In this document: one piece after another, positions 6,092-25,951 of the stretch
Layout: the number at the start of each line of letters is the position of its first letter
Position numbering within the stretch: position 1 is the stretch's first letter
DNA from: Longivirga aurantiaca
GTDB taxonomy: Bacteria > Actinomycetota > Actinomycetes > S36-B12 > CAIYMF01
Reading direction: 5' to 3'
NCBI RefSeq assembly: GCF_042660085.1
Contig: NZ_JBHSTI010000008.1
Location: forward strand, 1,299,876-1,331,875
Length of the DNA stretch: 32,000 nucleotides
Position numbers and translations under genes: made by a program
The notes under the pieces: model-generated
Seen by the model: only the letters and a program-made list of their open reading frames with translations
Databases searched by the model: none
Told to the model about the DNA's origin: nothing

Positions 6092-6316
6092 TCAGGCAGG
6101 GGGAGGGGAGGCGGCGTTGGGGTCGGTGCCGCGGACGGTGGCGAAGGGCTCGCCGCCGATGCCCCACTCGTCGGCGGTGATCTCGTAGATCGCGACGCGG
6201 ATGCGGTCCTTCGGCGTGCCGACCGCCTCGTGCATGGCGTCGGTGAGCTTCGCGATGAGGGCGTGCTTCTGCTCGACGGTGCGGCCCTGCACCATCGTCA
6301 CCTGGATCAGCGGCAT
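6092..6316 (-). CDS. dmpI: 4-oxalocrotonate tautomerase family enzyme
   Basis: 74 aa beginning MPLIQVTM (catalytic Pro1 after Met removal) with the typical beta-alpha-beta length. It sits immediately after the putative decarboxylase, as in dmpH-dmpI and xylI-xylH. Confidence 0.85.
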   Translation of the reverse strand: MPLIQVTMVQGRTVEQKHALIAKLTDAMHEAVGTPKDRIRVAIYEITADEWGIGGEPFATVRGTDPNAASPPPA

Positions 6317-6326
6317 GACTGTCTCC

Positions 6327-8170: not shown

Positions 8171-9072
8171 GCCGAGACCTCCTGGTGCGTGGCGATTGCC
8201 TCGCCGACCCGGACCGCGGCAGCGGTCATGATGTCGAGGTTGCCGGCGTACGTCGGCAGGTAGTCGCCGGCGCCCTCCACCTCGAGGAGGACGACCGACC
8301 GGAACGGCACGACGCCGCCCGGGGTGTTGAAGGGGCCCTCCTCGATGAGGGGCGGGGACTTGAGGCGGTAGCCCGGCACGTACTTCGCGACGTCGGCCAC
8401 CATCTGCACGATCGACTCGACCACGGCGTCGTGGTCGGTGCCGTCCGGCAGGGCGCAGAACACGGTGTTGCGCATCAGGATCGGCGGCTCGGCCGGGTTG
8501 AGCACGATGATGGCCTTGCCGATCTCGGCGCCGCCCACCTCGACCAGGGCCTGGCGCGTGGTGCGGGTGAACTCGTCGATGTTGGCCCGGGTGCCCGGAC
8601 CGGCCGACTTCGAGGACACGGCCGACACCATCTCGGCGTACGGCACGCGCGTGACGCGGCTGACGGCGGCGACCATCGGGGTCGTCGCCTGGCCCCCGCA
8701 GGTGACCATGTTGACGTTGATCGCGTCGAGGTGCTCCTCGAGGTTGACCGCGGCGATGACCTTCGGCCCGCGGGCGGCCGGCGTGAGGTCGACCGCCCGG
8801 ATGCCGAGCTCCTCGAGCACCTTGGCGTGCCGCACGTGGGCGTAGGCGCTGGTCGCGTCGAAGACCATGCGCACGGCGTCCGGGTTCTCGCGCACCCAGT
8901 CGATGCCGTTGCTCGGCGCCTCGTAGCCGCGCTCGCGTGCCCGCGAGAGGCCGTCGCTCTCGGGGTCGATGCCGATGAGCGCCACGAGGTCGAGCGAGGG
9001 TGACCGCTCGAGCTTGTACATGAGGTCGGTGCCGATGTTGCCGGACCCGATGATGGCGACGGGGAGTCCCAC
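8167..9072 (-). CDS. dmpF: Acetaldehyde dehydrogenase (acetylating)
   Basis: Rossmann motif [13 protein letters not shown], then the DmpF/MhpF-like body ([11 protein letters not shown] with the catalytic Cys). I start it at GTG 9072 (301 aa), with AAGGGA upstream. The ORF-track extension to 9174 overlaps the upstream gene and is Arg/Ser/Pro-rich. Confidence 0.9.
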
Positions 9073-9082
9073 GATGATCCCT

Positions 9083-9871
9083 TCAGACGATCCGGACTGA
9101 GACCGAGCCGAGCCGGTCGAACTCGGCCCGGTACGTCTCGCGAGCGGCGACCGGGACGGCGGCGTGCAGCGCACCGGTCATGACGATCGAGCCTGCGGGC
9201 AGCGAGGCGCCGAACGGGTGGAGCGTGCGGACGAGCCAGGCGACGGCGGCCGCGGGGTTTCCCAGGGCTGCGGCGCCGGCACCGGTGGCGATGACCTCGC
9301 CGTCGCGGGTGAAGACCATGCCGAGCGTGCGCAGGTCGACGTCGGCCACGGGGGTCGAGCCCCCGCCGATCACGATCGCGCCGCTGCTCGCCATGTCCGA
9401 GACCGTGTCGACGAGCTTGATGCGCCAGTCGGCCACGCGGCTGTCGACGAGCTCGATCGAGGCGACGACGCCCTCGACCGCGCGCTGCACGTCCAGCGGG
9501 GTGCAGTCGGGCCCGGAGAGGTCGGCGCCCAGCACGAGGGCGATCTCCGCCTCCAGCTTCGGCGCGATGAAGTCCGTGAGAGGCACCGCGGCACCGTCGT
9601 CGAGGACGTGCGAGGCCATCACCGGCGCGAAGTCGGGGGAGTCGACGCCGAGCATCTGCTGCATCGGCTTGCTCGTGAGCCCGAGCTTGTAGCCGACGAC
9701 GCGGTCGCCGTCGTCGAGGTAGCGCCGCACGACGCCCTGCTGCACGAGGTAGGCGTCCTCGAGCGTCAGCGTCGGGTCGCCGTCGGTGAGCGGCGGCACC
9801 GGCACCCGCGTGCGGCGTGCCTCGTAGAGCGCGGCGGCGAGCTCGTCGGCGCGCTCGGACGTGAGGGTCAT
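9083..9871 (-). CDS. dmpE: MhpD/XylJ-family enzyme, probable 2-oxopent-4-enoate (2-keto-4-pentenoate) hydratase by gene order
   Basis: 262 aa with motifs [18 protein letters not shown] and IELVDSR. Its position directly upstream of the dehydrogenase and aldolase matches dmpE-F-G. Its start overlaps the IclR stop (ATGA at 9868-9871). Confidence 0.75.
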
Positions 9872-10686
9872 CGCGATCCTTCCTTGCGGGCGGGTGCCTC
9901 GGCGAAACCCATGCGGCGGCTGATGGCGGCAGCCGCCTCGGTGACGGGGCGGACGTAGCGGCGCAGGGTCGCGCCCTCCATGCGGGTGAGCGGCCCGGCG
10001 ATCGACAGGGCGGCGACGACCGTTCCGCGCGTGTCGCGGATCGGGGCGGCGATCGAGGCGACGCCGACCTCGGACTCGTTCACGTTCTCGGCCCAGCCCT
10101 GGGAGCGGACGACGAGGAGCTGGGCGCGCAGCGTGGCCTGGTCCGAGATCGTGTACTGCGTCTTGCGCGGCAGCCGCCAGCCGGCCAGCAGCGCGTCGAG
10201 CTCCTCGGCGGGCAGGTGGGCGAGCAGCACCTTGCCGGTCGACGTCGCGTGGGCGTCGTTGCGGTGGCCGACGCGACCGAACAGCCGGATCGTCTGCGGG
10301 CTCTCCCGGCGCTCGACGTACACGACGTGCCGGCCGTCGAGCACCGCGATCTGCACGGTCTCCTTGGTGATGTTGCGCAGCTGCTCGATCACGGGGTTGG
10401 CCGCTGAGTGCAGGTCGATCGCCGACTGCACGCTGGTGCCGAGCTCGTGCATCGTGAGGGCGAGGCGGTAGGAGCCGGTCTCGGCATCCTGCTCGAGGAG
10501 CTTCTCGACGGTCAGCGTGTGCAGGAGCCGGTGGGTCGTGCTCTTGCCGAGGCCCAGCCGGCGCGACAGCTCGCTGACTCCGATCTCGCGGTCGCCCTTG
10601 CCGAACTCCTTGAGCAGGCGTGCGGCGTTGCTCACGCTGGCGAGGACCTGGGTGTCGCCCACGGGGCGGAGGTCGCGGTCCGACAC
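9868..10686 (-). CDS. IclR-family transcriptional regulator
   Basis: N-terminal winged HTH (GVSELSRRLGLGKSTTHRLLHTL) plus an IclR-type C-terminal effector domain (...LSIAGP...). GTG start at 10686, 1 nt after the upstream stop. Confidence 0.9.
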   Translation of the reverse strand: MSDRDLRPVGDTQVLASVSNAARLLKEFGKGDREIGVSELSRRLGLGKSTTHRLLHTLTVEKLLEQDAETGSYRLALTMHELGTSVQSAIDLHSAANPVIEQLRNITKETVQIAVLDGRHVVYVERRESPQTIRLFGRVGHRNDAHATSTGKVLLAHLPAEELDALLAGWRLPRKTQYTISDQATLRAQLLVVRSQGWAENVNESEVGVASIAAPIRDTRGTVVAALSIAGPLTRMEGATLRRYVRPVTEAAAAISRRMGFAEAPARKEGSR

Positions 10687-10687
10687 G

Positions 10688-11371
10688 TCAGCGCACCTCG
10701 GCGGGCGCGCGCAGGGCCGCTACGAGCGCGCGCCGCACGGCGGAGTCGTCGGCGGCGGGGTCCGCGCACACCGCGGCGAGCGAGGCGTCGTGGGGGGCGA
10801 GCTGCTGGGCGAGGAAGCGCACCGTCTGGTGCAGCCCGACGCGGTCCGCCACGGCGTACTCCTCGGCGAGCGTCGCCCGCGACCCGGCATGGGCCCTGAT
10901 CGTGTCGTGGTCGCGGAACACGGCGGCGTGCTGGTTGGCGAGCCCCGTGCCCGCGTGCTGCGCGTGGTGCGGCGTGAGGCCGCCGCCGGGGGAGACCGAC
11001 AGGTGGTAGACCACGTCCGGGACGCCGAGCACCTGGCGCACCTCCTCGGGTCGGGGGCCGTCCGACTCGTCGATGCCGCCGAGCCCGGGCGCGACGACCG
11101 GGTCGAAGAAGCGCAGGGTCCAGGTGAGGCCGTCGACCTCGTCGGCGATCTCGACCTCGGGGCCGTGCGGGGCCGGCAGCGGGCTCGTCGTGGCGAGCAC
11201 GTGCAGGTGCCGGACACCCACGGCGAGCACGGTCAGGTGGCTGCCGCGCAGCAGGGGGAGACCGGCCTGCTCGCCCACGGCCAGGTGCCGGGCCTGGTCG
11301 AGGTAGGCGCCGTGCAGCGCGGCCACGAACGAGGCCATCGCCTCCCGCATCTGTCCGGGGTCTGCGCTCAT
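10688..11371 (-). CDS. Hypothetical protein, 227 aa, first gene of the minus operon
   Basis: ATG at 11371 (MSADPGQMREAMASF...). G/C dominates third codon positions along the whole frame, which supports real coding. I recognise no family motif. It is His-rich locally (TPHHAQHAG). The ORF-track start at 11494 would run across the divergent promoter region. Confidence 0.6.
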   Translation of the reverse strand: MSADPGQMREAMASFVAALHGAYLDQARHLAVGEQAGLPLLRGSHLTVLAVGVRHLHVLATTSPLPAPHGPEVEIADEVDGLTWTLRFFDPVVAPGLGGIDESDGPRPEEVRQVLGVPDVVYHLSVSPGGGLTPHHAQHAGTGLANQHAAVFRDHDTIRAHAGSRATLAEEYAVADRVGLHQTVRFLAQQLAPHDASLAAVCADPAADDSAVRRALVAALRAPAEVR

Positions 11372-11392: not shown

Positions 11393-11433
11393 CTGTCCCG
11401 CATGGCGGCACATCGGTCCACTGTGCGGGACAG
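11393..11433. promoter_or_regulatory. Candidate operator: perfect 10-bp inverted repeat CTGTCCCGCA-N21-TGCGGGACAG
   Basis: Arms at 11393..11402 and 11424..11433 are exact reverse complements. The repeat sits between the two candidate -10 boxes, where both -35 regions would fall. An IclR regulator is encoded in the adjacent operon. Confidence 0.45.
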
Positions 11434-11453: not shown

Positions 11454-12362
11454 ATGGGCATCCTGCGGCTCGGCCACGTCGACGTGACGGTCACCGACCT
11501 CGACCTCGCGACGGCCTACTACACCGAAGTGATGGGCATGATCGTCGTCGAGCGTGACGCCGACTCGGTCTACCTGAAGTGCTGGGACGAGGTGGACCAC
11601 CACTCCCTGCGCCTCGTCTACGCACCCCGGGTCGGCCTCGACCTGATGGCCTTCAAGGTCGAGCGCGAGGACGATCTCGCCGACCTCGAGAAGGCCGTGA
11701 ACCGCTACGGCTTCCCCGTGCAGCGGATCTCCAAGGGCGAGTCGGTCGGCCAGGGCGAGTCGATCCGGTTCGAGACGCCGTCGGGCCAGACGATGGAGCT
11801 GGTCCACGACGTCGAGAAGGTCGGCGGGCTCCTGCCGAAGATCAACCCGGCGCCGTTCGTGACGGGCGTCCCCGGCATCGCCCCGCCGCGCATGGACCAC
11901 CTGCTGGTCACGGCCGAGGAGGTCGGCGAGGCCACGACGTTCTACACGAGCGTCCTCGGCTTCCGGGTCACCGAGCAGCTGCTCGACGGCAACGGCCACC
12001 AGATCGGCACCTGGATGGAGCGGTCGTTCTCGCCGCACGACCTCGCGATCGTGTCCGGCCCCAACGGCGGCCTCCACCACTTCGCGTTCTGGCTCGACGA
12101 CTGGGAGTCGGTCCGCAAGGCCGCCGACACGCTGGCCTACAACGGCATCCAGATCGACGTGGGCCCGACGCGACACGGCGTGACGCGAGGCAGCACGATC
12201 TACTTCTTCGACCCGCTCGGCACCCGCAACGAGGTCTTCACGGGCGGCTACCGCCCCGACCCCGACTTCCCGACGATCACCTGGACCGAGGACAACATCG
12301 GCCGAGCCGTCTTCTACTACGAGGGCGAGCTCAACGAGCGCTTCATGAAGGTGCACACCTGA
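11454..12362 (+). CDS. Catechol 2,3-dioxygenase (XylE/DmpB-type two-domain extradiol dioxygenase), copy 1
   Basis: 302 aa from the ATG at 11454. Along its length it resembles XylE as I recall it (LRLGHV..., HHFAF, IDVGPTRHGVTRGSTIYFFDPLGTRNEVFTGG, LNERFMKVHT). The ORF-track start at 11370 lies inside the promoter region. Confidence 0.9.
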   Translation: MGILRLGHVDVTVTDLDLATAYYTEVMGMIVVERDADSVYLKCWDEVDHHSLRLVYAPRVGLDLMAFKVEREDDLADLEKAVNRYGFPVQRISKGESVGQGESIRFETPSGQTMELVHDVEKVGGLLPKINPAPFVTGVPGIAPPRMDHLLVTAEEVGEATTFYTSVLGFRVTEQLLDGNGHQIGTWMERSFSPHDLAIVSGPNGGLHHFAFWLDDWESVRKAADTLAYNGIQIDVGPTRHGVTRGSTIYFFDPLGTRNEVFTGGYRPDPDFPTITWTEDNIGRAVFYYEGELNERFMKVHT

Positions 12363-13273
12363 TGACCATCCTGCGACTCAGCCACGTCGAGGTCCGCGTG
12401 CCCGACCTCGAGCTGGCAACGGCGTACTACTGCGAGGTCGTCGGCCTCATCGAGACCGCGCGCGAGAGCGAGCGGGTCTTCCTCAAGGGGTGGGACGAGC
12501 ACCAGCACCACTCGGTGGTGCTCACCTGGGAGCCGACGCACGGCCTCAACCACTTCGGGTTCAAGGTCACCGAGCTCGAGGACCTCGACCTGTACGCCGC
12601 GCGCCTCAAGGAGGCCGGCGTCGACGTCGTCCGCTACGGCCCCGACGAGTGGGCGCCGGGCCACGGCGAGGCGATCCGCTTCACCCTGCCGAGCGGCCAC
12701 TCGATGGAGCTCGTGCACGGCATGCAGCAGGTGGGCAACCTCCTGCCCCTCACCAACCCGCCGCCCAAGCCGCTGGGCCTTCCGGGCATCGCACCCCCGC
12801 GCATCGACCACATCTTCCTGACGGCCGAGGACGTCGGCGGCATGACCGACTTCTTCGTCGACGTGCTGGGCTTCCGCGTCACCGAGCAGGTCGTCGGCGA
12901 CGACGGCTTCCGCATCGCCACGTGGCTCGAGGTCTCGCACGCCAGCCACGACATCGCGTTGGTCACCGGCTCCAACGGCGGCCTGCACCACTTCGCGTGG
13001 GCGGTGGAGGACTGGACGGCGCTGCGCGACGCGGCGGACGTCTGCGCTTACCACGGCGTCCGGATCGAGACGAACCCGACGCGCCACGGGGCGACGCGCG
13101 GCCACTGCCTCTACTTCTTCGACCCCGTCGGCAACCGCAACGAGGTCTTCACGGGCGGCTACTGGGTCGACCCCGACAACGAGCCCACGATCTGGACCGA
13201 GGCGGAGATGGGTCGAGCCCTGTTCTGGTACGACGGAGTCGTCAACCAGAAGTTCCTGACGGTGCACACATGA
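12362..13273 (+). CDS. Catechol 2,3-dioxygenase (XylE/DmpB-type), copy 2
   Basis: 303 aa within the frame of ORF 11579..13273. The ATG at 12362 shares one base with the copy-1 stop (TGATG). It has the same XylE-like motifs (LRLSHV, HHFAW, TNPTRHGATRGHCLYFFDPVGNRNEVFTGG, VNQKFLTVHT). By eye, about half its positions match copy 1. Confidence 0.9.
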   Translation: MTILRLSHVEVRVPDLELATAYYCEVVGLIETARESERVFLKGWDEHQHHSVVLTWEPTHGLNHFGFKVTELEDLDLYAARLKEAGVDVVRYGPDEWAPGHGEAIRFTLPSGHSMELVHGMQQVGNLLPLTNPPPKPLGLPGIAPPRIDHIFLTAEDVGGMTDFFVDVLGFRVTEQVVGDDGFRIATWLEVSHASHDIALVTGSNGGLHHFAWAVEDWTALRDAADVCAYHGVRIETNPTRHGATRGHCLYFFDPVGNRNEVFTGGYWVDPDNEPTIWTEAEMGRALFWYDGVVNQKFLTVHT

Positions 13274-14355
13274 CCGCCGTGCAGGAGCCGACCACCGGCT
13301 CGGCCTTCCCGCGCACCGAGCGGCCCGACGCGCCGGCGTACCTCAGCCGCTACCTCGAGCGCACCGCTCGCACGGTGACCCGCGAGGAGGCGGAGGACGA
13401 GAGCACGCCGCTCTACCTGCGCCGGTTCCGCGAGCGCCGCGAGTCGACCGACCCGTTCGAGACCCCGGTCCCCACGTACGAGGGCCAGGAGCTCAACACC
13501 ACGCGCGGCTGGGCCGAGGTCACCCGCACGAAGGAGATCGTGCCCGAGCGCCGCGAGCAGGCGGCTCAGGCCACGACCGACATCTACTTCGTGCGCCACG
13601 GCGAGACGCAGGGCTACAGCTCGGAGTCGGGCCTCACACCGCTGGGCTCGTGGCAGGCGCACCGTCGCGGGCAGGAGCTCGCCCGTCGCGTGATGAACGG
13701 CCACACCGTGCGGCTCGCCTGCGCCGAGACCAACCGGGCCCGCCAGACCGCCGAGCACATCCGGCGCGGGTTGCTCGACGGCATGCAGCTGTTCGGTCGC
13801 GAGGCCACGGTCGGCGACATCGTCGGCTACCGCGAGTTCCAGAACTTCGCCGTGTCGACGCCCGAGGGCCTGCGCGACGTGACCTCGGCGTTCCGGCTCT
13901 ACGCCAAGGAGATAGAGGCGTACGAGCGGGTCTCGATGGGGGAGCGCCCGGGCTGGCTCGTGGAGATCGACCGTTTCTGGAAGATCCAGAACGCCGGCGG
14001 AGACCCGATCACCCACTGGCTGACCATGCCGCTCATGCACTTCGAGCCGCCGATCTCCTGCGTTCGCCGGTTCTGGGCCGGCCTGCTGCGGATCCACAAC
14101 GAGACGCCGGGCAACTCCGTCGTCGTCGCCACCCACTCCGGCCCGATCCGCGCCTTCGCCACCTGGGCGATGGGCTACGACCCGGGCGAGCCGTTCAACA
14201 CCGAGTTCGTGCGCGTCCGCCTCATCGACGGCGGAGTCACGGCGCTCGTGCTCTACCGCAACCGCGTCCAGGAGGTGCACGTGCCCGATCTCGAGGCACT
14301 GCCCAACTGGTGGACCGGCACCGCTACCGCGGCCGACGTCGCCGAGGGGATCTGA
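13270..14355 (+). CDS. Histidine phosphatase superfamily protein (PGAM-like) with a ~95-aa charged N-terminal extension
   Basis: 361 aa within the frame of ORF 12490..14355. The ATG at 13270 overlaps the copy-2 dioxygenase stop (ATGA). Catalytic RHG motif (YFVRHGETQG) and distal His (VVATHSGPIRA) are present. The N-terminal ~95 residues are Glu/Arg-rich with no motif I recognise, but they carry coding-type G/C third positions. Confidence 0.8.
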   Translation: MTAVQEPTTGSAFPRTERPDAPAYLSRYLERTARTVTREEAEDESTPLYLRRFRERRESTDPFETPVPTYEGQELNTTRGWAEVTRTKEIVPERREQAAQATTDIYFVRHGETQGYSSESGLTPLGSWQAHRRGQELARRVMNGHTVRLACAETNRARQTAEHIRRGLLDGMQLFGREATVGDIVGYREFQNFAVSTPEGLRDVTSAFRLYAKEIEAYERVSMGERPGWLVEIDRFWKIQNAGGDPITHWLTMPLMHFEPPISCVRRFWAGLLRIHNETPGNSVVVATHSGPIRAFATWAMGYDPGEPFNTEFVRVRLIDGGVTALVLYRNRVQEVHVPDLEALPNWWTGTATAADVAEGI

Positions 14356-15446
14356 TGACGACCATCACCTGGTTCGAGAGCTACTGGGCCGGCATGAAGA
14401 GCGAGGTCGGCGGCAAGGCGGCCAGCCTCGGCGAGATGACGGGTGCCGGGCTCCCGGTGCCCCCCGGCTTCGCGATCACGACCTCGTCGTACCGACGTGC
14501 CCGTGACGAGTCGGACCTCGACGCGCAGATCGCACGTCTCCTGCACGGCCTCGACACGTCGAACACCGACATGGTCTCCGAGCGCTGCGCGAAGATCCGT
14601 CAGGCCATCGCCACGATGCCGATCCCGGAGGGCATCGAGCTGCAGATCCGGGGTGCCTACCTCGAGCTCGGCGCCCGGTTCGGCATGAAGGACGTGCCGG
14701 TCGCGGTGCGGTCGTCGGCGACGTCGGAGGACTCGCCCGACGCGTCGTTCGCCGGCGAGCACGACACGTACCTGTGGGTGCGCGGCGCCGAGGACGTCAT
14801 CGACGCCGTACGCCGCTGCTGGGCCAGCCTGTTCACCGACCGCGCCACCTGCTACCGCGTGGAGATGGGCTACGACCACCGCACGGTCGAGATGTGCGTG
14901 GTCATCCAGAAGATGGTGACGCCGAAGGCGGCCGGCGTGGCCTTCACGCTCGACCCGACCAACGGCGACCGCTCGCAGGTGGCCATCGACGCCGCGTGGG
15001 GGTTCGGCGAGGCGGTCGTGGCCGGCGAGGTCACGCCCGACAACTACCGCGTCGACAAGGTCATGCTCGACATCACCAAGCGCATCGTGAGCGAGAAGTC
15101 GCACGAGTACGTGCTCACCGACCACGACACGGTGGAGAAGGTCGAGACGACGCCCGAGCGGGCGTCGGCGCCGTGCCTGACCGACACCGAGATCAAGGCC
15201 ATCACCAAGCTCGCCAAGACGGCAGAGCGCCACTACGGCTGCCCGCAGGACATCGAGTGGGCAGTCGACCTCGACCTGCCCGAGGGCGACAACATCATCC
15301 TGCTCCAGTCCCGGCCCGAGACCTTCTGGAGCAAGAAGGGGCCCACCACGGTGATCGAACCGGGCACCAAGTCGGGCGACTTCATGTCGAGCATCGTCTC
15401 GACGCTGATGTCGCCGCTGCACACGAAGGGGGCGGACGGTTCCTGA
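14355..15446 (+). CDS. PEP/pyruvate-binding (PPDK_N, ATP-grasp) domain protein; ATP-binding subunit of a split dikinase (phenylphosphate synthase PpsB-like)
   Basis: 363 aa within the frame of ORF 13650..15446. The ATG at 14355 shares one base with the upstream stop (TGATG). Motifs: VGGKAASLGEMTGAGLPVPPGF, VAVRSSATSEDSPDASFAGEHDTY, AAGVAFTLDP, DIEWAVD...ILLQSRPET. It has no His-swivel domain and no TIM-barrel domain. Confidence 0.85.
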   Translation: MTTITWFESYWAGMKSEVGGKAASLGEMTGAGLPVPPGFAITTSSYRRARDESDLDAQIARLLHGLDTSNTDMVSERCAKIRQAIATMPIPEGIELQIRGAYLELGARFGMKDVPVAVRSSATSEDSPDASFAGEHDTYLWVRGAEDVIDAVRRCWASLFTDRATCYRVEMGYDHRTVEMCVVIQKMVTPKAAGVAFTLDPTNGDRSQVAIDAAWGFGEAVVAGEVTPDNYRVDKVMLDITKRIVSEKSHEYVLTDHDTVEKVETTPERASAPCLTDTEIKAITKLAKTAERHYGCPQDIEWAVDLDLPEGDNIILLQSRPETFWSKKGPTTVIEPGTKSGDFMSSIVSTLMSPLHTKGADGS

Positions 15447-15478
15447 CCGGCTGTCCGTAGCACGTCGCACCACAACCG

Positions 15479-15499
15479 CGACCGCGCGCTGCGCGGTCG
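15479..15499 (+). other. Intercistronic GC hairpin between the two dikinase genes
   Basis: CGACCGCGC-GCT-GCGCGGTCG, a 9-bp perfect stem with a 3-nt loop and no U-tract. It lies in the 96-nt spacer, ahead of the strong Shine-Dalgarno GAAGGAG (15531..15537). Confidence 0.5.
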
Positions 15500-15542
15500 T
15501 CCACCCCAGTGAAGACCCGCAAGGGTTCTAGAAGGAGACCGC

Positions 15543-17354
15543 ATGGCTGGGTTCCCGCTCCCGTCGGAGATCACCACTCCGCCCGGCGCCGAAGGCTGGC
15601 AGGAGCTGTACGCGTACTCGTCGACGTGCAGCCCCGCGCGCGCCGAGTACGAGGACTCGATGTTCTGGTTCCAGGACGGCGTGCACTGGCCGAAGGCCCT
15701 GCTGCCGTGGGACGCCTCCCTCATGGAGGTGGCGATCACGGCGCTGTCGCAGTACAACACGCGTCACCTGCTCGTCCCGCCGGCCAACGGCATCGACTTC
15801 CGCATCGTGAACGGCTACACCTACCTGTCGCCGGTGCCAGCCCCGGAGGCCGACATCCCCGCCCGCGCCGAGCAGTTCATGCAGCGCGCAGGCCACTACT
15901 TCATGAACTGGAACGACCTCTACGACAACTGGCTCGTCAAGATCCGCGACCTGGTCAAGGAGATGGAGGGCATCACCTTCGAGACCCTCCCGGACGTCGA
16001 GCCCATGGAGGTCGTCACCTCCGGAGCGGGCAAGGGCGCGGGCGGCGCGCTGCAGGCCAACTACCTGCACCTGCTCACGTCGGCCAGCACCCTGTGGCAG
16101 TACCACTTCGAGTTCCTCAACCTGGGCTACGCCGCCTACCTGGACTTCTTCGGCTTCTGCAAGCAGGCGTTCCCCGGCATCTCCGACCTCGCCATCGCCA
16201 AGATGGTGGCCGGCGTCGAGGTCGACCTGTTCCGTCCGGACGAGGAGCTCAAGCGCCTCGCCCGCATGGCCGTCGACACCGGCATCACCGATGCCTTCAA
16301 GATCGGCGACGTCGAGGGCACGTGCGAGGCGCTGCGCGCCAAGGGCGACGCCGGTCAGGCCTGGATCTCCTCGTTCCAGCAGTCGGCCGAGCCGTGGTTC
16401 AACTTCTCGACCGGATCGGGCTTCTCGAGCCAGGACAAGATCTGGATCGAGAACGTCGAGATCCCGTTCGACTTCATCAAGAACTACATCGACAACCTCC
16501 AGAAGGGCGACGACATCAACCGCCCGACGGAGGCGATCTCGGCCGAGCGCGACCGCATCGTGTCGGAGTACGTCGCCCTGCTCGGCTCGGACGAGGACCG
16601 CGAGGCCTTCAACGGCAAGCTCGGCCTCGCCCGCGTGGTGTTCCCCTATGTCGAGAACCACAACTTCTACGTCGAGCACTGGAGCCACTCGGTCATCTGG
16701 CGCAAGATGAAGGAGCTCGGCGCGATCTTCGCGAAGGAGGGCTTCCTCGCGGACGCCGGCGACATCTTCTTCATGAAGCGCCACGAGATCCCGGACGCGC
16801 TGTTCGACCTCTACCACTCGTGGGCGGCGCCCGCGGTGGCGGCAGGCCCGTCGTACTGGCCGGGGATCATCGCCAGGCGCAAGTCGATCCACTCGGCGCT
16901 CAGCGACTGGAAGCCGACCCCGGCCCTCGGCTCGCCGCCGGAGGTCGTCACCGAGCCCCTCACGATCATGCTGTGGGGCATCACGTCCGACTCGATCGCC
17001 AACTGGCTCGGCGGCGGTGCGAGCGAGGACGGCTCCCTCAACGGCATGGCGGCCTCGCCCGGTGTCGAGGAGGGCCCGGCCCGCGTCATCTTCGGGCCCG
17101 ACCAGATCAACGAGGTGCAGGACGGCGAGATCCTCGTCGCCCCGCTCACCGCGCCGAGCTGGGCGCCGATCTTCGGCAAGATCAAGGCGACCGTCACGGA
17201 CACCGGCGGCATGATGAGCCACGCCGCCATCGTGTGCCGCGAGTACGGCCTCCCGGCGGTGACCGGTACGGGCTTCGCCACGTCGCTCATCACGACCGGC
17301 ATGAGGATCCGCGTCGACGGGTCCAACGGCAAGGTCACGATCCTGGACGACTAA
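15543..17354 (+). CDS. PEP-utilising enzyme mobile-domain protein; phospho-histidine/substrate subunit of a split dikinase (phenylphosphate synthase PpsA-like)
   Basis: 603 aa starting at an ATG preceded by GAAGGAG. The C-terminal ~90 aa form the swivelling His domain (GMAASPG..., TDTGGMMSHAAIVCREYGLPAVTG). The ~500-aa N-terminal region has no motif I can name and is presumably the substrate-binding part. There is no PEP/pyruvate TIM-barrel domain. Confidence 0.85.
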   Translation: MAGFPLPSEITTPPGAEGWQELYAYSSTCSPARAEYEDSMFWFQDGVHWPKALLPWDASLMEVAITALSQYNTRHLLVPPANGIDFRIVNGYTYLSPVPAPEADIPARAEQFMQRAGHYFMNWNDLYDNWLVKIRDLVKEMEGITFETLPDVEPMEVVTSGAGKGAGGALQANYLHLLTSASTLWQYHFEFLNLGYAAYLDFFGFCKQAFPGISDLAIAKMVAGVEVDLFRPDEELKRLARMAVDTGITDAFKIGDVEGTCEALRAKGDAGQAWISSFQQSAEPWFNFSTGSGFSSQDKIWIENVEIPFDFIKNYIDNLQKGDDINRPTEAISAERDRIVSEYVALLGSDEDREAFNGKLGLARVVFPYVENHNFYVEHWSHSVIWRKMKELGAIFAKEGFLADAGDIFFMKRHEIPDALFDLYHSWAAPAVAAGPSYWPGIIARRKSIHSALSDWKPTPALGSPPEVVTEPLTIMLWGITSDSIANWLGGGASEDGSLNGMAASPGVEEGPARVIFGPDQINEVQDGEILVAPLTAPSWAPIFGKIKATVTDTGGMMSHAAIVCREYGLPAVTGTGFATSLITTGMRIRVDGSNGKVTILDD

Positions 17355-17368
17355 GGGCACACTGTCCC

Positions 17369-17397
17369 GCCTGGGGGGCCGGATCGGCCCCCCAGGC
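17369..17397 (+). terminator. Strong GC hairpin downstream of the dikinase (terminator, attenuator or mRNA-stabilising structure)
   Basis: GCCTGGGGGGCCG-GAT-CGGCCCCCCAGGC, a 13-bp perfect stem with a 3-nt loop, starting 15 nt after the stop at 17354. No adjacent U-tract. It is followed by about 65 nt and then the GGAGGA Shine-Dalgarno of the oxygenase gene. Confidence 0.5.
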
Positions 17398-17463
17398 CGG
17401 ATGCTCCGTCAGACTTCTTCCCAGCACTTCCCCAGCACCGCCGCAGCACACCGGAGGAACCGC

Positions 17464-18717
17464 ATGCTCACCGTGGAGCAGAACAACGAGCTCACGCAGA
17501 TCGGCCCGGGCACGCCCATGGGCGAGCTGCTCCGGCGCTACTGGTACCCCATCGCGTTCGAGCAGGACTTCGACACCGTCCCGTCCAAGACGGTGCGGCT
17601 GCTCAGCGAGGACTGGACGCTCTACAAGACCCCGAGCGGCAAGTACGGGATCATCGGCGAGAAGTGCGCGCACCGCCGCGCCTCGCTCACCTACGGCGTC
17701 GTCCACGAGGACGGCATCCGGTGCGGCTACCACGGCTGGAAGTACGACTTCGACGGCCAGTGCACCGAGCAGCCGGCCGAGGCCGACAACCAGAACTTCC
17801 GCGACCGCGTGAAGATGAAGTCGGGCAAGGCGCAGCCGATGGGCGGCCTGGTCTGGGTGTACGTCGGTCCCGACCCCGCGCCCGAGCTTCCGCGCTTCGA
17901 CGTGTTCGTGAAGGCCGGCGTCCGCGACGTCGGCTACACGGTCATCCCGTGCAACTGGCTCCAGATCATGGAGAACTCCGTCGACCCGCACCACGTCGAG
18001 TGGCTGCACGGCTACTACTTCAACTTCCTCGGTGAGACCAACGGCTTCGAGGCTCCCAAGGCCTTCCAGAAGAAGCACATGAAGACCGGCTTCGACGAGA
18101 TGGAGTGGGGCATCCTCAAGCGCCGCGTGCTCGAGGGCGGCACCGAGGAGAACGACGACTGGAAGATCGGCCACCCGCTCGTCTTCCCGTTCTACATGCG
18201 CGTCGGCGGCGCCTACATCGACCAGATGCAGATCCGCGTGCCGATCGACGAGACCCACACCTGGAAGCTCTTCTACTCCACGCACAACCCGGGAGAGAAG
18301 CTCACCACCCAGGAGCGCCCGCACGTGTACGAGTACCTCTGGAAGGACGAGGAGGGCCGGTTCATCACCGACTACATCGAGGGCCAGGACGTCATGGCCT
18401 GGGTGTCGCAGGGTGAGATCACCGACCGCACCCAGGAGCACCTCGGACGTTCGGACGCCGGTGTGGCGCTGCTGCGCAAGATGTTCAAGGAGAACATGCG
18501 CAAGGTGGCCAACGGCGAGGACCCGATCGGCACCGTCCGCTACAAGCACGACATCATCAATCTGCCCTGCGAGAAGGACAAGTTCGGCGCCGAGCGCACC
18601 TTCGCGGCAGCCTGGATCAACGGCGGCTCGATGCGGTACAGCCCGATCAAGGACGAGCTCCTGGCACTGCACGAGTCCTACTGGTCCGACCTGGAGAAGG
18701 CCGAAGCTGGTGCCTGA
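17464..18717 (+). CDS. Rieske non-heme iron oxygenase, catalytic alpha subunit (phthalate-family type, no beta subunit gene)
   Basis: 417 aa from the ATG at 17464, with GGAGGA at 17453..17458. Rieske motif CAHRRASL-x-CGYHGWKY (CxH-x17-CxxH). Mononuclear-iron motif NWLQIMENSVDPHHVEWLH. The N-terminal GPGTPMGELLRRYWYPIA is typical of alpha-only Rieske oxygenases. No small beta-subunit gene follows. Confidence 0.88.
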   Translation: MLTVEQNNELTQIGPGTPMGELLRRYWYPIAFEQDFDTVPSKTVRLLSEDWTLYKTPSGKYGIIGEKCAHRRASLTYGVVHEDGIRCGYHGWKYDFDGQCTEQPAEADNQNFRDRVKMKSGKAQPMGGLVWVYVGPDPAPELPRFDVFVKAGVRDVGYTVIPCNWLQIMENSVDPHHVEWLHGYYFNFLGETNGFEAPKAFQKKHMKTGFDEMEWGILKRRVLEGGTEENDDWKIGHPLVFPFYMRVGGAYIDQMQIRVPIDETHTWKLFYSTHNPGEKLTTQERPHVYEYLWKDEEGRFITDYIEGQDVMAWVSQGEITDRTQEHLGRSDAGVALLRKMFKENMRKVANGEDPIGTVRYKHDIINLPCEKDKFGAERTFAAAWINGGSMRYSPIKDELLALHESYWSDLEKAEAGA

Positions 18718-19006
18718 CGAGCGATCCGAGGTGGTGGCGCGGGCTGCTGACGCCGCGCCGCTGCCGGACGACCCGCACGAGCTGCCCGACCCCGGGCAGT
18801 GGTTCGCACCGGACGCCGAGCGGCACTACCTCGACCGGCCGAAGTTCTGCCCGATGTGCGCGGCTTCGATCGGCGAGCACGGCGGGATCACGACCGAGTA
18901 CTGGACCGGCGACACCCGCAACTTCATGACCTGGTGCGGGGAGTGCGGCTGGTTCGGCGAGGTGGTGCGGTTCGACCGCGTCACGATCATGGAGGAGGAG
19001 CACTGA
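18710..19006 (+). CDS. Small 4-Cys zinc-ribbon / rubredoxin-like protein of unknown function
   Basis: 98 aa if started at GTG 18710, which overlaps the oxygenase stop by 8 nt and has GGAGAAGG 9 nt upstream. Alternative GTG starts lie at 18731 and 18734. It contains CPMC-x25-CGEC with flanking aromatics (YW, FMTW, GW). Third codon positions are strongly G/C. No other start gives a gene that includes both Cys pairs. Confidence 0.6.
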   Translation: MPDERSEVVARAADAAPLPDDPHELPDPGQWFAPDAERHYLDRPKFCPMCAASIGEHGGITTEYWTGDTRNFMTWCGECGWFGEVVRFDRVTIMEEEH

Positions 19007-19020
19007 ACCCGGTCGCCGGC

Positions 19021-19773
19021 GTGGATGTCGAGTCCGCTGCCGAGCTGCTGGACGGTGCCCACCTGCGCGGTGTGCTGCTCGAGGCCGTCGACGTGCGCGT
19101 AGGCGGCCTCGCTGCGGCGTACGGCGTCCAGGACGCGCTCACGGCGCGCCGGATCGCCCGCGGCGCGACCCGGGTCGGGTGGAAGCTCGGGTACACCTCC
19201 GCCGTGATGCGTGCGCAGATGGGGATCTCCGAGCCCAACTTCGGTCCGCTGCTGTCGAGCATGCTGGTCGACGCGGTGGACGACCGGTTCGTGCAGCCGC
19301 GGGTCGAGCCGGAGATCGCGCTGGTCCTCGGCAGCGACCCCGGGCCCGGTGCGGGGATCGACGACGTCCTCGGCGCCTGCCGCTCGGCGCGCGTGGCGCT
19401 GGAGGTCGTCGACTCGGTCTGGACCGGCTACTCCTTCGACCTCGAGCACAACACCGCCGACGGGTCGTCGGCCGCCGGGGTGGTGCTGGGCGAGGTGATC
19501 CCGCTCGACCGGCTCGACGAGGTGGCGGTGACGATGCAGGTCGACGGCGTGGAGGTTGCCCACGGCCGCGGTGCCGACGCGTCGGGGCACCCGGCCCTCG
19601 GGATCGCATGGCTCAGCGCGCGCCTCGCCGAGCGAGGGCTGGCGCTGCACGACGGCGACGTCGTCATCACCGGGGGGCTGACGGCGGCGTACCCGCTCGA
19701 CCGGGGGTCGACGGTGGCGGCCACGTTCGCCCATGACGGGTTCGGCTCACGAACGGTGGAGGTCTCGCGGTGA
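19021..19773 (+). CDS. MhpD/XylI/XylJ-family hydratase/decarboxylase, third paralog
   Basis: 250 aa from GTG 19021, within ORF 18799..19773. Motifs GWKLGYTS, VEPEIALVLG and LEVVDSV are present. The N-terminus aligns by eye with the 9083..9871 paralog from this start. Confidence 0.8.
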   Translation: MDVESAAELLDGAHLRGVLLEAVDVRVGGLAAAYGVQDALTARRIARGATRVGWKLGYTSAVMRAQMGISEPNFGPLLSSMLVDAVDDRFVQPRVEPEIALVLGSDPGPGAGIDDVLGACRSARVALEVVDSVWTGYSFDLEHNTADGSSAAGVVLGEVIPLDRLDEVAVTMQVDGVEVAHGRGADASGHPALGIAWLSARLAERGLALHDGDVVITGGLTAAYPLDRGSTVAATFAHDGFGSRTVEVSR

Positions 19774-20414
19774 CGGCGCTCGTGCTCGACTTCGGCGGCC
19801 CGGTGCTACGCACGCCGTTCGAGCTGCTGCGCGGCGCCGAGACGCGGTTGGGGCTCGCCGACGGCGCGCTCGGCTGGACCGGGCCGTTCGATCCGTCCGT
19901 GGACGAGGACTGGCGGCTCATGCAGGGGCATGCGATCACCGAGCGCGACTACTGGCAGCGCAAGGCCGACGAGTTCGCGGCTCTCACGGGGCGCGAGGCG
20001 TCGTTCCGTGGCCTCATGGACGTGCTCTTCGACGCGCCCGAGCAGGAGCTCGTGCGGCCCGAGGCGCGGCGCCTCGCCGAGGACGCGCGGGGCGCCGGGA
20101 TCCCGGTCGCCGTGTGCACCAACGACATGCAGGCCTTCCATGGCCTCGAGTGGGTCCAGCGCAACGAGTTCCTGAAGCTTGTCGACGTGCTCGTCGACGG
20201 CTCGGTCGAGCACATCCTCAAGCCGGACCCACGGATCTACCTCATGGTGGTGGAACGGCTCGGCCTCGCCGCGGCGGACTGCGTCTTCGTCGACGACCAG
20301 CCCGGCAACGTGGCCGGTGCCGAGGCCGTGGGCATGCCGAGCGTGTGGTTCGACGTCACGGAGCCGTCGTCGTCGTACGCCGAGGCGCGCGCGCTGCTCG
20401 GGCTGGGTGCCTAG
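19770..20414 (+). CDS. HAD-IA superfamily hydrolase (probable phosphatase), paralog 2
   Basis: 214 aa. The GTG start overlaps the upstream stop (GTGA at 19770-19773). Motifs: LVLDFGGPVL, AVCTND, LKPDP, FVDD. It shares cap motifs (E-x-DYW) and the C-terminal ALLGLG with the 4960..5595 paralog. Confidence 0.8.
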   Translation: MTALVLDFGGPVLRTPFELLRGAETRLGLADGALGWTGPFDPSVDEDWRLMQGHAITERDYWQRKADEFAALTGREASFRGLMDVLFDAPEQELVRPEARRLAEDARGAGIPVAVCTNDMQAFHGLEWVQRNEFLKLVDVLVDGSVEHILKPDPRIYLMVVERLGLAAADCVFVDDQPGNVAGAEAVGMPSVWFDVTEPSSSYAEARALLGLGA

Positions 20415-20460
20415 AGATGGCGGCGACGCGGACCGGTCTCGGCGCCTGCGCGGGGCACGT

Positions 20461-21813
20461 ATGTGGTGGGATCGGCTCGTGACCTTCCGTGCAGCCGTCG
20501 TCGGCGCCGGGCCCTCGGGCCTGTACGCGGCCGACGCCCTCGCCTCCGCCGGTGTGAACGTCGACGTCATCGAGCGGCTCCCCGTCCCGTTCGGGCTCGT
20601 GCGCTACGGCGTCGCGCCCGACCACTTCTCCATCCGGTCGGTGCGCGACACCCTCGCCAAGGTGCTCGCGCGGCCCGAGGTGCGGCTGCTGGCGGGCGTC
20701 GAGGTGGGCGCAGACGTCACGGTCGACGAGCTCGTCGCGGCGTACGACGCCGTGGTGCTGACCTACGGCGCCTCGCGCGACCGGCACCTCGACGTGCCGG
20801 GCGAGGACCTGCCGGGCAGCGTCGCGGCCACCGACCTCGTGAACTGGTACTGCGGCCACCCGGACGCCGACCGCGAGCGCATCGAGGCGTCGCTGCGCGG
20901 CGTGACGAGCGCCGTCGTCGTCGGCGTGGGCAACGTGGCGGTCGACGTCGCGCGCGTGCTCGTCGCTCCGGCCGATCGGCTGGCGGCGACCGACATGCCG
21001 CAGCACGTGCTCGACGTGCTGGCCTGCACCGGCATCACCGACGTGCACGTGCTCGGCCGGCGTACCGCTGCGCACGCCAACTGGACCACGAAGGAGCTGC
21101 GCGAGCTCGGCGAGCTCGACGGCGTCGACGTCGTCTGCGGCGCGGCCGAGCTCGTGTCCGAGCCTGTGGCCGACAGGCTCGACGCGGAGGACCGCGTGGT
21201 GCACCGCAACCTCGAGGTGCTGCACGAGTGGTCGCACCGCTCGCCCACCGGGGCGCCGAGGCGGATCCACCTGCACTTCCACGCGCGTCCGGCAGAGCTG
21301 CGCGGCACCGACCGTGTCGAGACGATGGTGGTCGAGCGCACGCAGGTCGACGACGACGGCAGCGCGCACGGCACCGGCCAGACCTGGGAGCTTCCCGCGC
21401 AGCTCGTGATCCGGTCGGTCGGCTATCGCGGCCTGCCGCTCGAGGGCGTGCCGTTCGACCCTCGGCGCAACGTCGTGCGCAACGACGAGGGCCGCGTCGT
21501 CGACGAGGCCGGTGCGCAGGTGCCGGGGCTCTACGTCGCCGGATGGATCAAGCGGGGCCCCAGCGGGATCATCGGCACCAACAAGAAGGATGCCGGCGCG
21601 ACCGTGGCGCACCTGCTCGAGGACCTCGACGGTGCGGCCGAGCGCGGCGGCGACGGCGTCGTGCCCCTGCTGGCCTCGCGCGGCGTCACGCCGGTGGGCC
21701 TGTCCGGCTGGGAGTCGATCGACGCCGCCGAGCGCGCGCTCGGCGCCACCCAGGGCCGCGACCGCACCACGCTGCACACCCGCGACGCCCTGGTCGCCGC
21801 CGCCCGCCCCTGA
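20461..21813 (+). CDS. fprA: Ferredoxin--NADP+ reductase, adrenodoxin-reductase type (FprA-like)
   Basis: About 450 aa. FAD motif AAVVGAGPSGLYAA, FGLVRYGVAPDH, NADP motif VVGVGNVAVDVARVL and GWIKRGPSGIIGTNKKDA all closely match mycobacterial FprA as I recall it. The start is ATG 20461 or the in-frame GTG 20479. Confidence 0.88.
   Translation: MWWDRLVTFRAAVVGAGPSGLYAADALASAGVNVDVIERLPVPFGLVRYGVAPDHFSIRSVRDTLAKVLARPEVRLLAGVEVGADVTVDELVAAYDAVVLTYGASRDRHLDVPGEDLPGSVAATDLVNWYCGHPDADRERIEASLRGVTSAVVVGVGNVAVDVARVLVAPADRLAATDMPQHVLDVLACTGITDVHVLGRRTAAHANWTTKELRELGELDGVDVVCGAAELVSEPVADRLDAEDRVVHRNLEVLHEWSHRSPTGAPRRIHLHFHARPAELRGTDRVETMVVERTQVDDDGSAHGTGQTWELPAQLVIRSVGYRGLPLEGVPFDPRRNVVRNDEGRVVDEAGAQVPGLYVAGWIKRGPSGIIGTNKKDAGATVAHLLEDLDGAAERGGDGVVPLLASRGVTPVGLSGWESIDAAERALGATQGRDRTTLHTRDALVAAARP

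Positions 21814-23446: not shown

Positions 23447-23450
<4 letters not shown>
22461..23450 (-). CDS. Sucrase/ferredoxin-like (Suc_Fer-like, thioredoxin-fold [2Fe-2S]) family protein
   Basis: 329 aa, the 3' part of ORF 22461..25547. The GTG at 23450 overlaps the parC-like stop (GTGA). Family pattern: N-terminal Cys + GTA...[11 protein letters not shown], then [13 protein letters not shown] and HLGGHRFAP. Confidence 0.75.

Positions 23451-25951
<2,501 letters not shown>

Follow-up and report, generated by a model that had tools for sequence, protein, structure and literature searches.

A two-component dikinase and a Rieske oxygenase in a conserved operon of Longivirga aurantiaca and other Actinomycetota: a candidate aerobic route from phenols to catechol meta-cleavage

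The described system closest to the operon considered here is the aerobic Cre pathway of Corynebacterium glutamicum, whose P450 CreJ, as Du reportedly found in 2016, acts on the aryl phosphate itself. This pathway runs from the dikinase CreHI through the P450 system CreJEF to the phosphohydrolase CreD and has no carboxylase (PMC12167813, PMC9618137, PMC9549646). We analysed 32,000 nucleotides of Longivirga aurantiaca (contig NZ_JBHSTI010000008.1, positions 1,299,876 to 1,331,875; 72% G+C), hereafter the window. A single plus-strand operon at 11454-21813 carries genes for a two-component dikinase, a Rieske oxygenase, phosphatases and two catechol 2,3-dioxygenases (C23Os). A first-pass annotation of the same DNA had stated that catabolic aryl phosphates are handed to a carboxylase, and had presented the order of phosphorylation, oxygenation and dephosphorylation as new. 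The Cre pathway, which passes an aryl phosphate on without carboxylation, shows the first statement to be incomplete and curtails the second: the logic is Cre-like and known, and the novelty lies in the use of another oxygenase family, in the predicted oxygenation of the ring and in the connection to meta-cleavage.

Other described systems share parts of this arrangement. The phenylphosphate synthase PpsABC of Thauera, Aromatoleum and Azoarcus also has a two-polypeptide dikinase with Ser before the catalytic His, but the window has no PpsC CBS protein, UbiD-type carboxylase or UbiX, its dikinase genes stand in reversed order, and its context is O2-dependent, unlike the anaerobic Pps system. 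The Hpe/Acv systems (HpeHI/AcvAB) combine an aerobic two-component dikinase with a HAD-family phosphatase gene (HpeD) in the cluster; however, they proceed by biotin-dependent carboxylation of the aryl phosphate on its acetyl side chain, whereas the window has no biotin carboxylase system, and the residue before the catalytic His is Cys in HpeH and Ser in the window protein. In the aniline route, gamma-glutamylanilide synthetase derivatises the substrate at the expense of ATP before Rieske dioxygenation to catechol, and a hydrolase is kept in the cluster; this route differs in its glutamyl group, its glutamine-synthetase-like activating enzyme and its alpha/beta oxygenase. Hydroxylation of 3-hydroxypyridine, catalysed in Ensifer adhaerens HP1 by HpdA, depends on a neighbouring PEP-utilising/PPDK_N pair (bioRxiv 10.1101/2020.01.08.898148), and the enzyme there is a molybdenum hydroxylase instead of a Rieske oxygenase. 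Riboflavin catabolism (PMC12746152), considered as a further relative, has no dikinase and is unrelated.

According to our analysis, the operon is controlled by IclR and most likely serves to degrade at least one monocyclic phenol under aerobic conditions. We consider it moderately probable that the phenols would be phosphorylated, oxygenated next to the ester and freed of phosphate by hydrolysis or elimination, and that the resulting catechols would enter meta-cleavage. Genes were called from frame plots of third-codon-position G+C (GC3) and inspection of start codons, and domains were assigned by Pfam, NCBIfam and PDB searches. The gene calls and domains of the first-pass annotation all hold with one adjustment: the Rieske gene probably starts at 17464 and not 21 codons earlier at 17401, because orthologs conserve the protein from ML..EQN and a ribosome-binding site precedes 17464. 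The operon consists of the following features, with overlapping junctions except for a 96-nt spacer between DikB and DikA and a ~110-nt gap that separates DikA from the Rieske gene.

11454 to 12362, plus strand: catechol 2,3-dioxygenase paralog 1, 302 aa (NCBIfam and PDB matches)
12362 to 13273, plus strand: catechol 2,3-dioxygenase paralog 2, 303 aa (NCBIfam)
13270 to 14355, plus strand: histidine phosphatase, branch 1, 361 aa (Pfam His_Phos_1)
14355 to 15446, plus strand: dikinase ATP-grasp subunit DikB, CreI/PpsB/HpeI-like, 363 aa (PPDK_N only)
15478 to 15500, plus strand: GC-rich hairpin in the DikB-DikA spacer (RNAfold)
15543 to 17354, plus strand: dikinase substrate-binding and swivel-His subunit DikA, CreH/PpsA/HpeH-like, 603 aa (Pfam PEP-utilizers)
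17464 to 18717, plus strand: alpha-only Rieske non-heme iron oxygenase of the phthalate family, 417 aa (Rieske and LigXa_C)
18710 to 19006, plus strand: 4-Cys zinc-ribbon-like mini-protein (invariant Cys)
19021 to 19773, plus strand: MhpD/DmpH-like FAA_hydrolase paralog, accessory and not core (Pfam, NCBIfam)
19770 to 20414, plus strand: HAD-IA hydrolase (Pfam Hydrolase/HAD_2, TIGR02247)
20407 to 21813, plus strand: FprA-type NADPH-ferredoxin reductase (match to PDB 1lqt)

DikB has PPDK_N as its sole domain (383 bits, Pfam), and the PEP-utilizers swivel domain at aa 526-596 is the sole known domain of DikA. This layout agrees with that of two-component phenolic dikinases, in which a grasp polypeptide of ~40 kDa is separate from a substrate-binding and swivel polypeptide of ~66-71 kDa. 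NCBIfam PEP synthase matches span just the grasp and swivel portions, Pfam gave no match to the PEP/pyruvate TIM barrel in either subunit, and DikA matches NCBIfam PRK08296 with 808 bits. The product of 15543-17354 contains the swivel motif TDTGGMMSHAAIVCREYG. Two-component phenolic dikinases, as described by Dexter et al., have the pattern T/SxxGGxxxH with Met and not the regulatory Thr at position -2 (PMC12167813); the window sequence TDTGGMMSH fits this pattern: its Met stands at -2, and the Ser at -1 is shared with CreH and PpsA.

For comparison, reference clusters were collected by a tblastn search of plasmids, which yielded Cre-type clusters of Rhodococcus ruber and R. oxybenzonivorans, a pps-ppc cluster of Azoarcus KH32C and one Hpe/Acv-like cluster in Rhizobium. 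DikB is 46% identical over 313 aa to HpeI (crystal structure 9goj), 49-50% identical to Cre-type subunits and 44% identical to the B subunit of Azoarcus KH32C, while DikA shares 53-56% with Cre-type proteins and 46-48% with PpsA of the same Azoarcus. Identity to the phenolic dikinases is therefore around or above ~45%, where the syntenic Cre and Pps references are named by their context and not by assay. DikA has thousands of homologs, the best 120 of which are 602-605 aa long and 65-93% identical to it. Neighbour-joining trees, one for each subunit, placed the window sequences in a distinct monophyletic clade with Cre-type proteins nearest. By all of these sequence features the pair belongs to the PpsAB/CreHI/HpeHI family of two-component dikinases, as the first-pass annotation had proposed from the domain layout.

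Two rival readings of the dikinase can be weighed on these data. Database names such as 'pyruvate, water dikinase' would suggest a PEP synthase or PPDK of central metabolism, or a rifampicin phosphotransferase (RPH), that stands beside a catabolic operon by chance; this is effectively refuted by the missing PEP/pyruvate-binding domain, the split architecture, an identity of just ~24% to RPH-like proteins and synteny in 80 related loci (below). Alternatively, the dikinase might act on an aniline or an aminophenol and form its phosphoamidate, a reaction that has been proposed for Desulfatiglans anilini, and the Rieske enzyme would then dioxygenate this product with release of phosphoramidate. 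Aerobic aniline dioxygenation does need prior ATP-dependent activation, and activation of aniline by Pps-like synthases has been reported (PMC7500099). However, the swivel motif and overall identity place the enzyme with phenol kinases, and the loci contain no recurrent deaminase or nitrogen-handling genes, which makes an arylamine substrate highly improbable.

The gene set was strongly conserved. All window proteins were compared by tblastn with the 80 closest related loci, and each count given here includes only loci whose contig extends far enough. Core gene order was near-invariant across several orders of Actinomycetota; carriers were Nanopelagicales-like metagenome-assembled genomes, Nocardioides, Micromonospora, Blastococcus and Nostocoides (cultured strains of these four included, for example Nocardioides aquiterrae and Micromonospora globispora), Streptosporangiaceae, Pseudonocardiales and Acidimicrobiia. 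The Rieske oxygenase was found in 75/75 loci, the mini-protein in 71/71, each C23O in 73/73, the ATP-grasp subunit in 77/78, the His phosphatase in 73/74 and the HAD enzyme in 64/69. Moreover, the dikinase, phosphatase and oxygenase genes were adjacent or translationally coupled in 75/75 loci. Such an arrangement is far beyond chance, and this strict synteny supports the earlier proposal that the dikinase, the Rieske oxygenase, the phosphatases and the C23Os act in one pathway. In a scan with one genome per species, >572 genomes had a relative, and the 80 loci compared here are the closest of them.

Absences were assessed by tblastn with reference proteins from annotated clusters against the window and 81 loci (82 loci, 1.49 Mb). 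UbiD/Ppc, UbiX, PpsC, biotin carboxyl carrier protein and carboxyltransferase were found in 0/82 loci, as were CreJ-like P450 and HD phosphohydrolase, and biotin carboxylase in 2/82, both far from the core. Domain searches of the 32-kb window detected no carboxylase and no flavin or diiron phenol hydroxylase, in line with what had been noted for this DNA before; a carboxylase just outside the window, which would have spoken against the proposal, was looked for within 10 kb on either side with negative result. A cis-diol dehydrogenase had one weak match across the 82 loci. De novo clustering of the open reading frames returned only a reductase of the phthalate dioxygenase reductase (PDR) type, an aldehyde dehydrogenase and housekeeping neighbours as recurrent extras. 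Since the loci hold no other conserved consumer, the Rieske oxygenase is the only conserved candidate for using the aryl phosphate. Moreover, because a diol dehydrogenase is missing, an aromatic product must come from monooxygenation or from dioxygenation at the carbon of the leaving group.

The Rieske oxygenase has Pfam Rieske and LigXa_C domains and a weak VanA_C match, and domain searches of the window found no beta-subunit gene. Among proteins of solved structure it is closest to RO_CH34, phthalate (4,5-)dioxygenase and isophthalate dioxygenase, with E-values from 6e-46 to 7e-37. Like PDO_KF1, IPDO_KF1 and RO_CH34, which act on anionic aromatics, it is alpha-only and is accompanied by a ferredoxin and reductase or a PDR-type partner; it also has a conserved basic stretch that may correspond to theirs. 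The phthalate and isophthalate dioxygenases (PDO and IPDO) are alpha3-alpha3 enzymes, in which a conserved Arg anchors the substrate carboxylate (PMC8649396, PMC12445078); this residue is Arg244 in PDO and Arg234 in IPDO. In the window protein, the predicted ligands of the Rieske CxH...CxxH pattern are C89/H91 and C108/H111; for the mononuclear His-His-Asp iron site, the DPHHVEWLH motif is present and a conserved QD motif (residues 329-330) aligns with that of PDO_KF1 and RO_CH34, the ligand roles being assigned by analogy with PDO. The residues K240-R241-R242 are invariant in the clade and would fall in the region of the anchoring Arg, although the HMMER alignment is offset and low in confidence at that place. 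Kinship with phthalate and isophthalate dioxygenases together with invariant K240 and R242 suggests that the oxygenase suits an anionic aromatic. His197 (numbered from 17401), which precedes the first predicted iron-ligand His of DPHHVEW, is invariant in the dikinase-linked clade, whereas phthalate-type relatives have Thr or Ile there. This residue is a candidate for determining specificity.

This family assignment bears on two further rivals. In the first, a guaiacol-type 2-methoxyphenol would be phosphorylated and then O-demethylated by the Rieske enzyme, with VanA/LigXa/DdmC chemistry, to a 2-hydroxyaryl phosphate and formaldehyde, after which the phosphatase would free catechol. LigXa_C, the weak VanA_C match and the presence of DdmC among the solved relatives fit this idea, which would also account for catechol formation without a phenol hydroxylase, for the need of a phosphatase and for the missing diol dehydrogenase. 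O-demethylases, however, score far lower (9e-15), so that ring dioxygenases are closer by ~30 orders of magnitude (6e-46 vs 9e-15); in addition, the loci show no recurrent formaldehyde-handling or tetrahydrofolate genes, and nothing indicates methoxylated substrates. O-demethylation is accordingly judged unlikely.

In the second, the roles would be uncoupled: the Rieske enzyme would act on a non-phosphorylated carboxylate or a free phenol, and the dikinase and phosphatase would serve uptake trapping, detoxification or another intermediate. The conserved phosphatase could just reverse the phosphorylation, which would resemble the gamma-glutamylanilide hydrolase retained in aniline dioxygenase clusters. 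The nearest Rieske relatives, two plasmid-borne proteins with 46-48% identity that both share the K.R motif, also lie in phthalate-type clusters without a dikinase, and that of Peribacillus has the same mini-protein. These clusters contain a diol dehydrogenase and decarboxylases; the dehydrogenase of Peribacillus is of the Gfo/Idh/MocA type, and the Burkholderia cluster has a gene annotated 'oxidoreductase domain protein'. Phthalate-type enzymes form cis-dihydrodiols and need both a diol dehydrogenase and a decarboxylase, whereas the window cluster has neither. The invariable coupling or adjacency of the dikinase, phosphatase and oxygenase genes argues against uncoupled roles as well, and a trap-and-release cycle costing two ATP equivalents has no precedent in the Cre and Hpe systems, where the downstream enzyme needs the phosphate (PMC9618137). 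We regard uncoupled roles as rather unlikely.

Electron supply to the oxygenase varied among lineages. The reductase at the end of the operon matches FprA (1lqt) at 8e-97, and in Nocardioides-type loci a phthalate-dioxygenase-reductase-like FNR+Fer2 protein replaces it (27 loci). Homologs of the Rieske-type ferredoxin were found in 47 related loci, in addition to Nocardioides pyridinolyticus (L081) and the window. In the mini-protein, C47, C50, C76 and C79 are invariant, and it looks like a zinc-ribbon or rubredoxin-like accessory of this Rieske subfamily, so far undescribed. A role of the mini-protein in phosphate chemistry was considered and rejected, since its homolog directly follows the closest plasmid-borne Rieske relative, in Peribacillus sp. 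R9-11 (L089:10320-10520), where no dikinase is present.

Comparison with the Cre pathway helps to place the oxygenation. Both systems have an aerobic two-component dikinase followed by an oxygenase, a dedicated phosphatase and no carboxylase; Cre-type clusters further share the IclR regulator and the order of ATP-grasp gene before swivel gene, and their dikinases are the closest relatives. The Cre pathway, however, uses a P450 on an alkyl side chain, the alcohol and aldehyde dehydrogenases CreG and CreC and an HD phosphohydrolase, and yields 4-hydroxybenzoate. The window instead has a Rieske oxygenase, a His phosphatase and HAD enzyme, no such dehydrogenases, and XylE-type C23Os. These differences in enzyme set imply oxygenation of the ring to catechol. 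In the Rhodococcus plasmids, the cluster comprises IclR, P450, both dikinase genes, a short-chain dehydrogenase/reductase (SDR), ferredoxin, reductase, HD phosphohydrolase and aldehyde dehydrogenase. These two Cre-type clusters (L082, L083) adjoin a toluene-4-monooxygenase operon, which suggests a plasmid-borne route from toluene through p-cresol into the Cre pathway.

The kinship with Cre also raises the possibility that the Rieske enzyme stands in place of CreJ. Its target would then be the alkyl group of a 4-alkylphenol in phosphorylated form, which would be oxidised on the way to a hydroxybenzoate. In addition to the nearest dikinases, gene order and regulator just mentioned, two observations speak for this idea: methyl hydroxylation of anionic p-toluenesulfonate is catalysed by TsaM, a member of the same Rieske family, and on a Haladaptatus plasmid a dikinase occurs together with a Rieske alpha/beta oxygenase, a phosphoesterase and dehydrogenases for alcohol and aldehyde. 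Against it, alcohol dehydrogenase/SDR proteins gave four distal matches in 82 loci, none of them recurrent; an aldehyde dehydrogenase was confined to Nocardioides-type loci, where it closes the meta-pathway block; and ring cleavage is assigned to XylE-type C23Os and not to protocatechuate enzymes. Side-chain oxidation is, in our view, very unlikely for the window. The cluster on the Haladaptatus salinisoli plasmid (L088; dikinase A and B, Rieske alpha/beta oxygenase, Zn alcohol and aldehyde dehydrogenases, metallophosphoesterase, NUDIX) looks, from its gene content, like a Cre-like pathway with a Rieske enzyme replacing the P450.

Two phosphatase-like genes accompany the oxygenase. The His phosphatase is the most universal accessory gene of the related loci, and the stop of its gene overlaps the DikB start. 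Its RHGET (R109-H110-G111) and THSGP (His289) motifs are invariant; in an AlphaFold2 (AF2) model, an N-terminal extension of 100 aa is poorly ordered and the core matches PhoE, PGM and TIGAR folds with a Foldseek probability of 1.0. On these motifs and folds, the protein fits branch 1 of the histidine phosphatase superfamily. Motif I of the HAD enzyme is D-F-G-G, that is D-x-G and not D-x-D, and is invariant in orthologs of the downstream copy. A motif I with D-x-G is also known from phosphatases that act on activated esters, for example glucose-1-phosphatase YihX, and NCBIfam gave a weak match of the HAD enzyme to the YihX family. Both HAD paralogs of the window (19770-20414, and a second copy at 4960-5595 on the minus strand) lack the second Asp of canonical HAD phosphatases.

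A phosphatase gene is also present in all three compared dikinase clusters without phenylphosphate carboxylase, each time of another fold: HD in the Cre type, HAD in the Hpe type and a metallophosphoesterase in Haladaptatus. The recurrence of a phosphatase in every one of these clusters speaks slightly for loss of phosphate by hydrolysis once oxygenation has taken place. A conserved hydrolase is nevertheless compatible with spontaneous elimination too, as aniline dioxygenase clusters retain one that acts on the activated intermediate.

Ring cleavage is assigned to the two C23Os. C23O-1 and C23O-2 score 379 and 345 bits against TIGR03211 (cut-off 320), C23O-1 matches the structures of XylE (1mpy) and LapB (3hpv) at ~1e-77 to 1e-78, and the His/His/Glu metal ligands and catalytic residues were seen in both paralogs by eye against XylE numbering. 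Judged by homology, both are bona fide XylE-type enzymes of the two-domain VOC fold, which makes monocyclic catechols the expected product class. The paralogs are 53% identical to each other, whereas each is at least ~70% identical to most of its own orthologs (for paralog 2, 64-68% to a few), suggesting that the duplication is old.

The genes for later steps differed among loci. The lower meta-pathway block lay upstream or downstream of the core, and the FAA_hydrolase paralog at the position of 19021-19773 was found in a minority of related loci only. Nocardioides-type loci carry an aldehyde (hydroxymuconic semialdehyde, HMS) dehydrogenase in 18/18 cases and an alpha/beta-hydrolase fused to a Rieske ferredoxin in 13/18. 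One such fusion, in Nocardioides pyridinolyticus (L081:2938-4197, 419 aa), is probably a meta-cleavage product hydrolase; its hydrolase part had tblastn matches in 15 further loci, and the PDR-type reductase occurs in the same lineages.

Taken together, the favoured pathway would run as follows. The dikinase, as its family membership suggests, would use ATP to convert the phenolic hydroxyl group to an aryl phosphate via the phospho-His of the swivel domain, releasing AMP and Pi. The dianionic aryl phosphate would then be the substrate of the Rieske oxygenase, which, as synteny and its relatives indicate, may add oxygen beside the ester carbon; NAD(P)H would be the electron donor, with transfer by way of an FprA- or PDR-type reductase and the Rieske ferredoxin, and the zinc-ribbon mini-protein would act as a partner. 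After that, a 2-hydroxyaryl phosphate might be hydrolysed by the His phosphatase and/or the D-x-G-type HAD enzyme, which we slightly favour, or phosphate might be eliminated spontaneously after 1,2-(ipso)-dioxygenation. Finally, the catechols would be opened by the two XylE-type C23Os and degraded through the meta-cleavage pathway, a step well supported by homology. Phosphorylation may act as a high-affinity trap for scarce phenols and provide an anionic handle for the oxygenase.

Several points weigh against this pathway. The closest Rieske relatives use aromatic carboxylates and not phosphates, and the assignment of R242 as the carboxylate-binding Arg depends on the low-confidence alignment mentioned above. 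Spontaneous phosphate loss leaves two conserved phosphatase-like genes unexplained, and hydrolytic loss requires a dioxygenase-like enzyme to work as a monooxygenase. The need for a pair of conserved C23O paralogs is unexplained. Moreover, window-type loci keep 4-OT and 4-OD, and within 10 kb an HMS dehydrogenase occurred in 1/28 and a hydrolase in 2/28 of them, which does not agree with a plain catechol route unless the two genes are located elsewhere; if they are not, ring fission would have to yield an acid directly. The expense of two ATP equivalents for each phenol also calls for a rationale, for which scavenging is a suggestion only (PMC12167813).

A more specific proposal is that phosphorylation by ATP makes the phenolic oxygen able to leave and that the Rieske enzyme is an aryl-phosphate 1,2-dioxygenase, a type of reaction not known to be described for Rieske oxygenases; Pi would then be lost spontaneously and both catechol oxygens would derive from O2. 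We hold it as a tentative and rather doubtful one. It would constitute a third aerobic phenol-to-catechol system beside the flavin and diiron phenol hydroxylases, and if true, the system would exist in >570 species-level genomes of soil and freshwater Actinomycetota. A more radical sub-variant, prompted by the retention of 4-OT and 4-OD without HMS dehydrogenase in window-type clusters, would keep the phosphate on the ring until after cleavage and lose it as an acyl phosphate, with 2-hydroxymuconate as the direct product. As a principal explanation, an acyl phosphate formed by C23O from a 3-phospho-oxy-catechol would account for the missing HMS dehydrogenase and hydrolase, but it was rejected in view of the dehydrogenase and hydrolase counts of Nocardioides-type loci, and because no diol dehydrogenase is present to form the required intermediate.

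If the broader pathway of phosphorylation, oxygenation and phosphate loss is correct, a widespread aerobic entry to the catechol meta-pathway would operate via a kinase and not a hydroxylase, and the principle of Cre and Hpe, with phosphate as trap and handle, would be extended to Rieske oxygenases and to ring oxygenation. The genomic reading of phenol degradation would change as well, since these genes now bear the names pyruvate,water dikinase, PhoE and hypothetical protein. The pathway could account for the scavenging of trace phenolics by oligotrophic Actinobacteria of soil and freshwater, and could offer a regioselective kinase/oxygenase/phosphatase cascade for catechol synthesis. Full-text literature searches found no paper that describes this cluster or a Rieske oxygenase acting on an aryl phosphate, and on this point the first-pass annotation, which knew of no phosphorylation-dependent Rieske oxygenation, stands.

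Regulation and the remaining genes of the catabolic island are encoded upstream of the operon, on the opposite strand:

4960 to 5595, minus strand: second copy of the HAD paralog (motif I D-x-G)
5654 to 6022, minus strand: Rieske-type ferredoxin (Pfam Rieske/Rieske_2)
6092 to 9871, minus strand: 4-OT tautomerase, 4-OD decarboxylase, DmpG aldolase, DmpF acetaldehyde dehydrogenase and hydratase (Pfam)
9868 to 10686, minus strand: IclR-family regulator, divergent from the catabolic operon (Pfam HTH_IclR and IclR_C)
10688 to 11371, minus strand: orphan 227-aa protein, directly upstream of IclR (no family match)
11393 to 11433, no strand assigned: putative operator, an inverted repeat (motif recurrent in the divergent intergenic region)

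The IclR gene was present in 66/66 loci and the orphan gene in 64/68. The orphan protein had no Pfam, NCBIfam or PDB match, and its family has 166 representatives only among 1.84 billion proteins. Its AF2 model (pLDDT 92.7) gave no Foldseek match in the PDB, and a cluster of His residues (H135, H136, H139, H148) is invariant. In several metagenomic representatives it occurs as a fusion with IclR domains, which speaks for a role in regulation, and the protein is probably a regulatory partner; the idea that it is a missing enzyme was dropped for want of a sequence or fold match and in view of these fusions. The intergenic region between the orphan gene and the divergent operon contains a 10-bp inverted repeat, CTGTCCCGCA / TGCGGGACAG (arms 11393-11402 and 11424-11433), and the palindrome containing GTCCCGCA is a putative operator. 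Visual inspection showed GT(C/T)CCGCAT..CGG.AC in this intergenic region for the majority of related loci, distant genera included. The palindrome is likely an operator, to which the regulator would bind.

Some minor elements of the window were also considered. The hairpin at 15478-15500, with a 10-bp stem and a 3-nt loop, lies within the 96-nt spacer at 15447-15542. Among relatives, the spacer between DikB and DikA measured 0 to 232 nt, and similar hairpins were found in close relatives only; we do not regard the hairpin as a conserved RNA element, since its conservation stops there. A beta-carbonic anhydrase gene (21872-~22400, minus strand) lies just 3' of the catabolic island, a placement conserved in close relatives such as L091. 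As a clue to carboxylation it was set aside, given its opposite strand and its co-occurrence in close relatives only, and it is taken as a neighbour and not a member of the system. The catabolic island is flanked by parE/gyrB-like (8-1990) and parC/gyrA-like (23447-25951, minus strand) topoisomerase genes.

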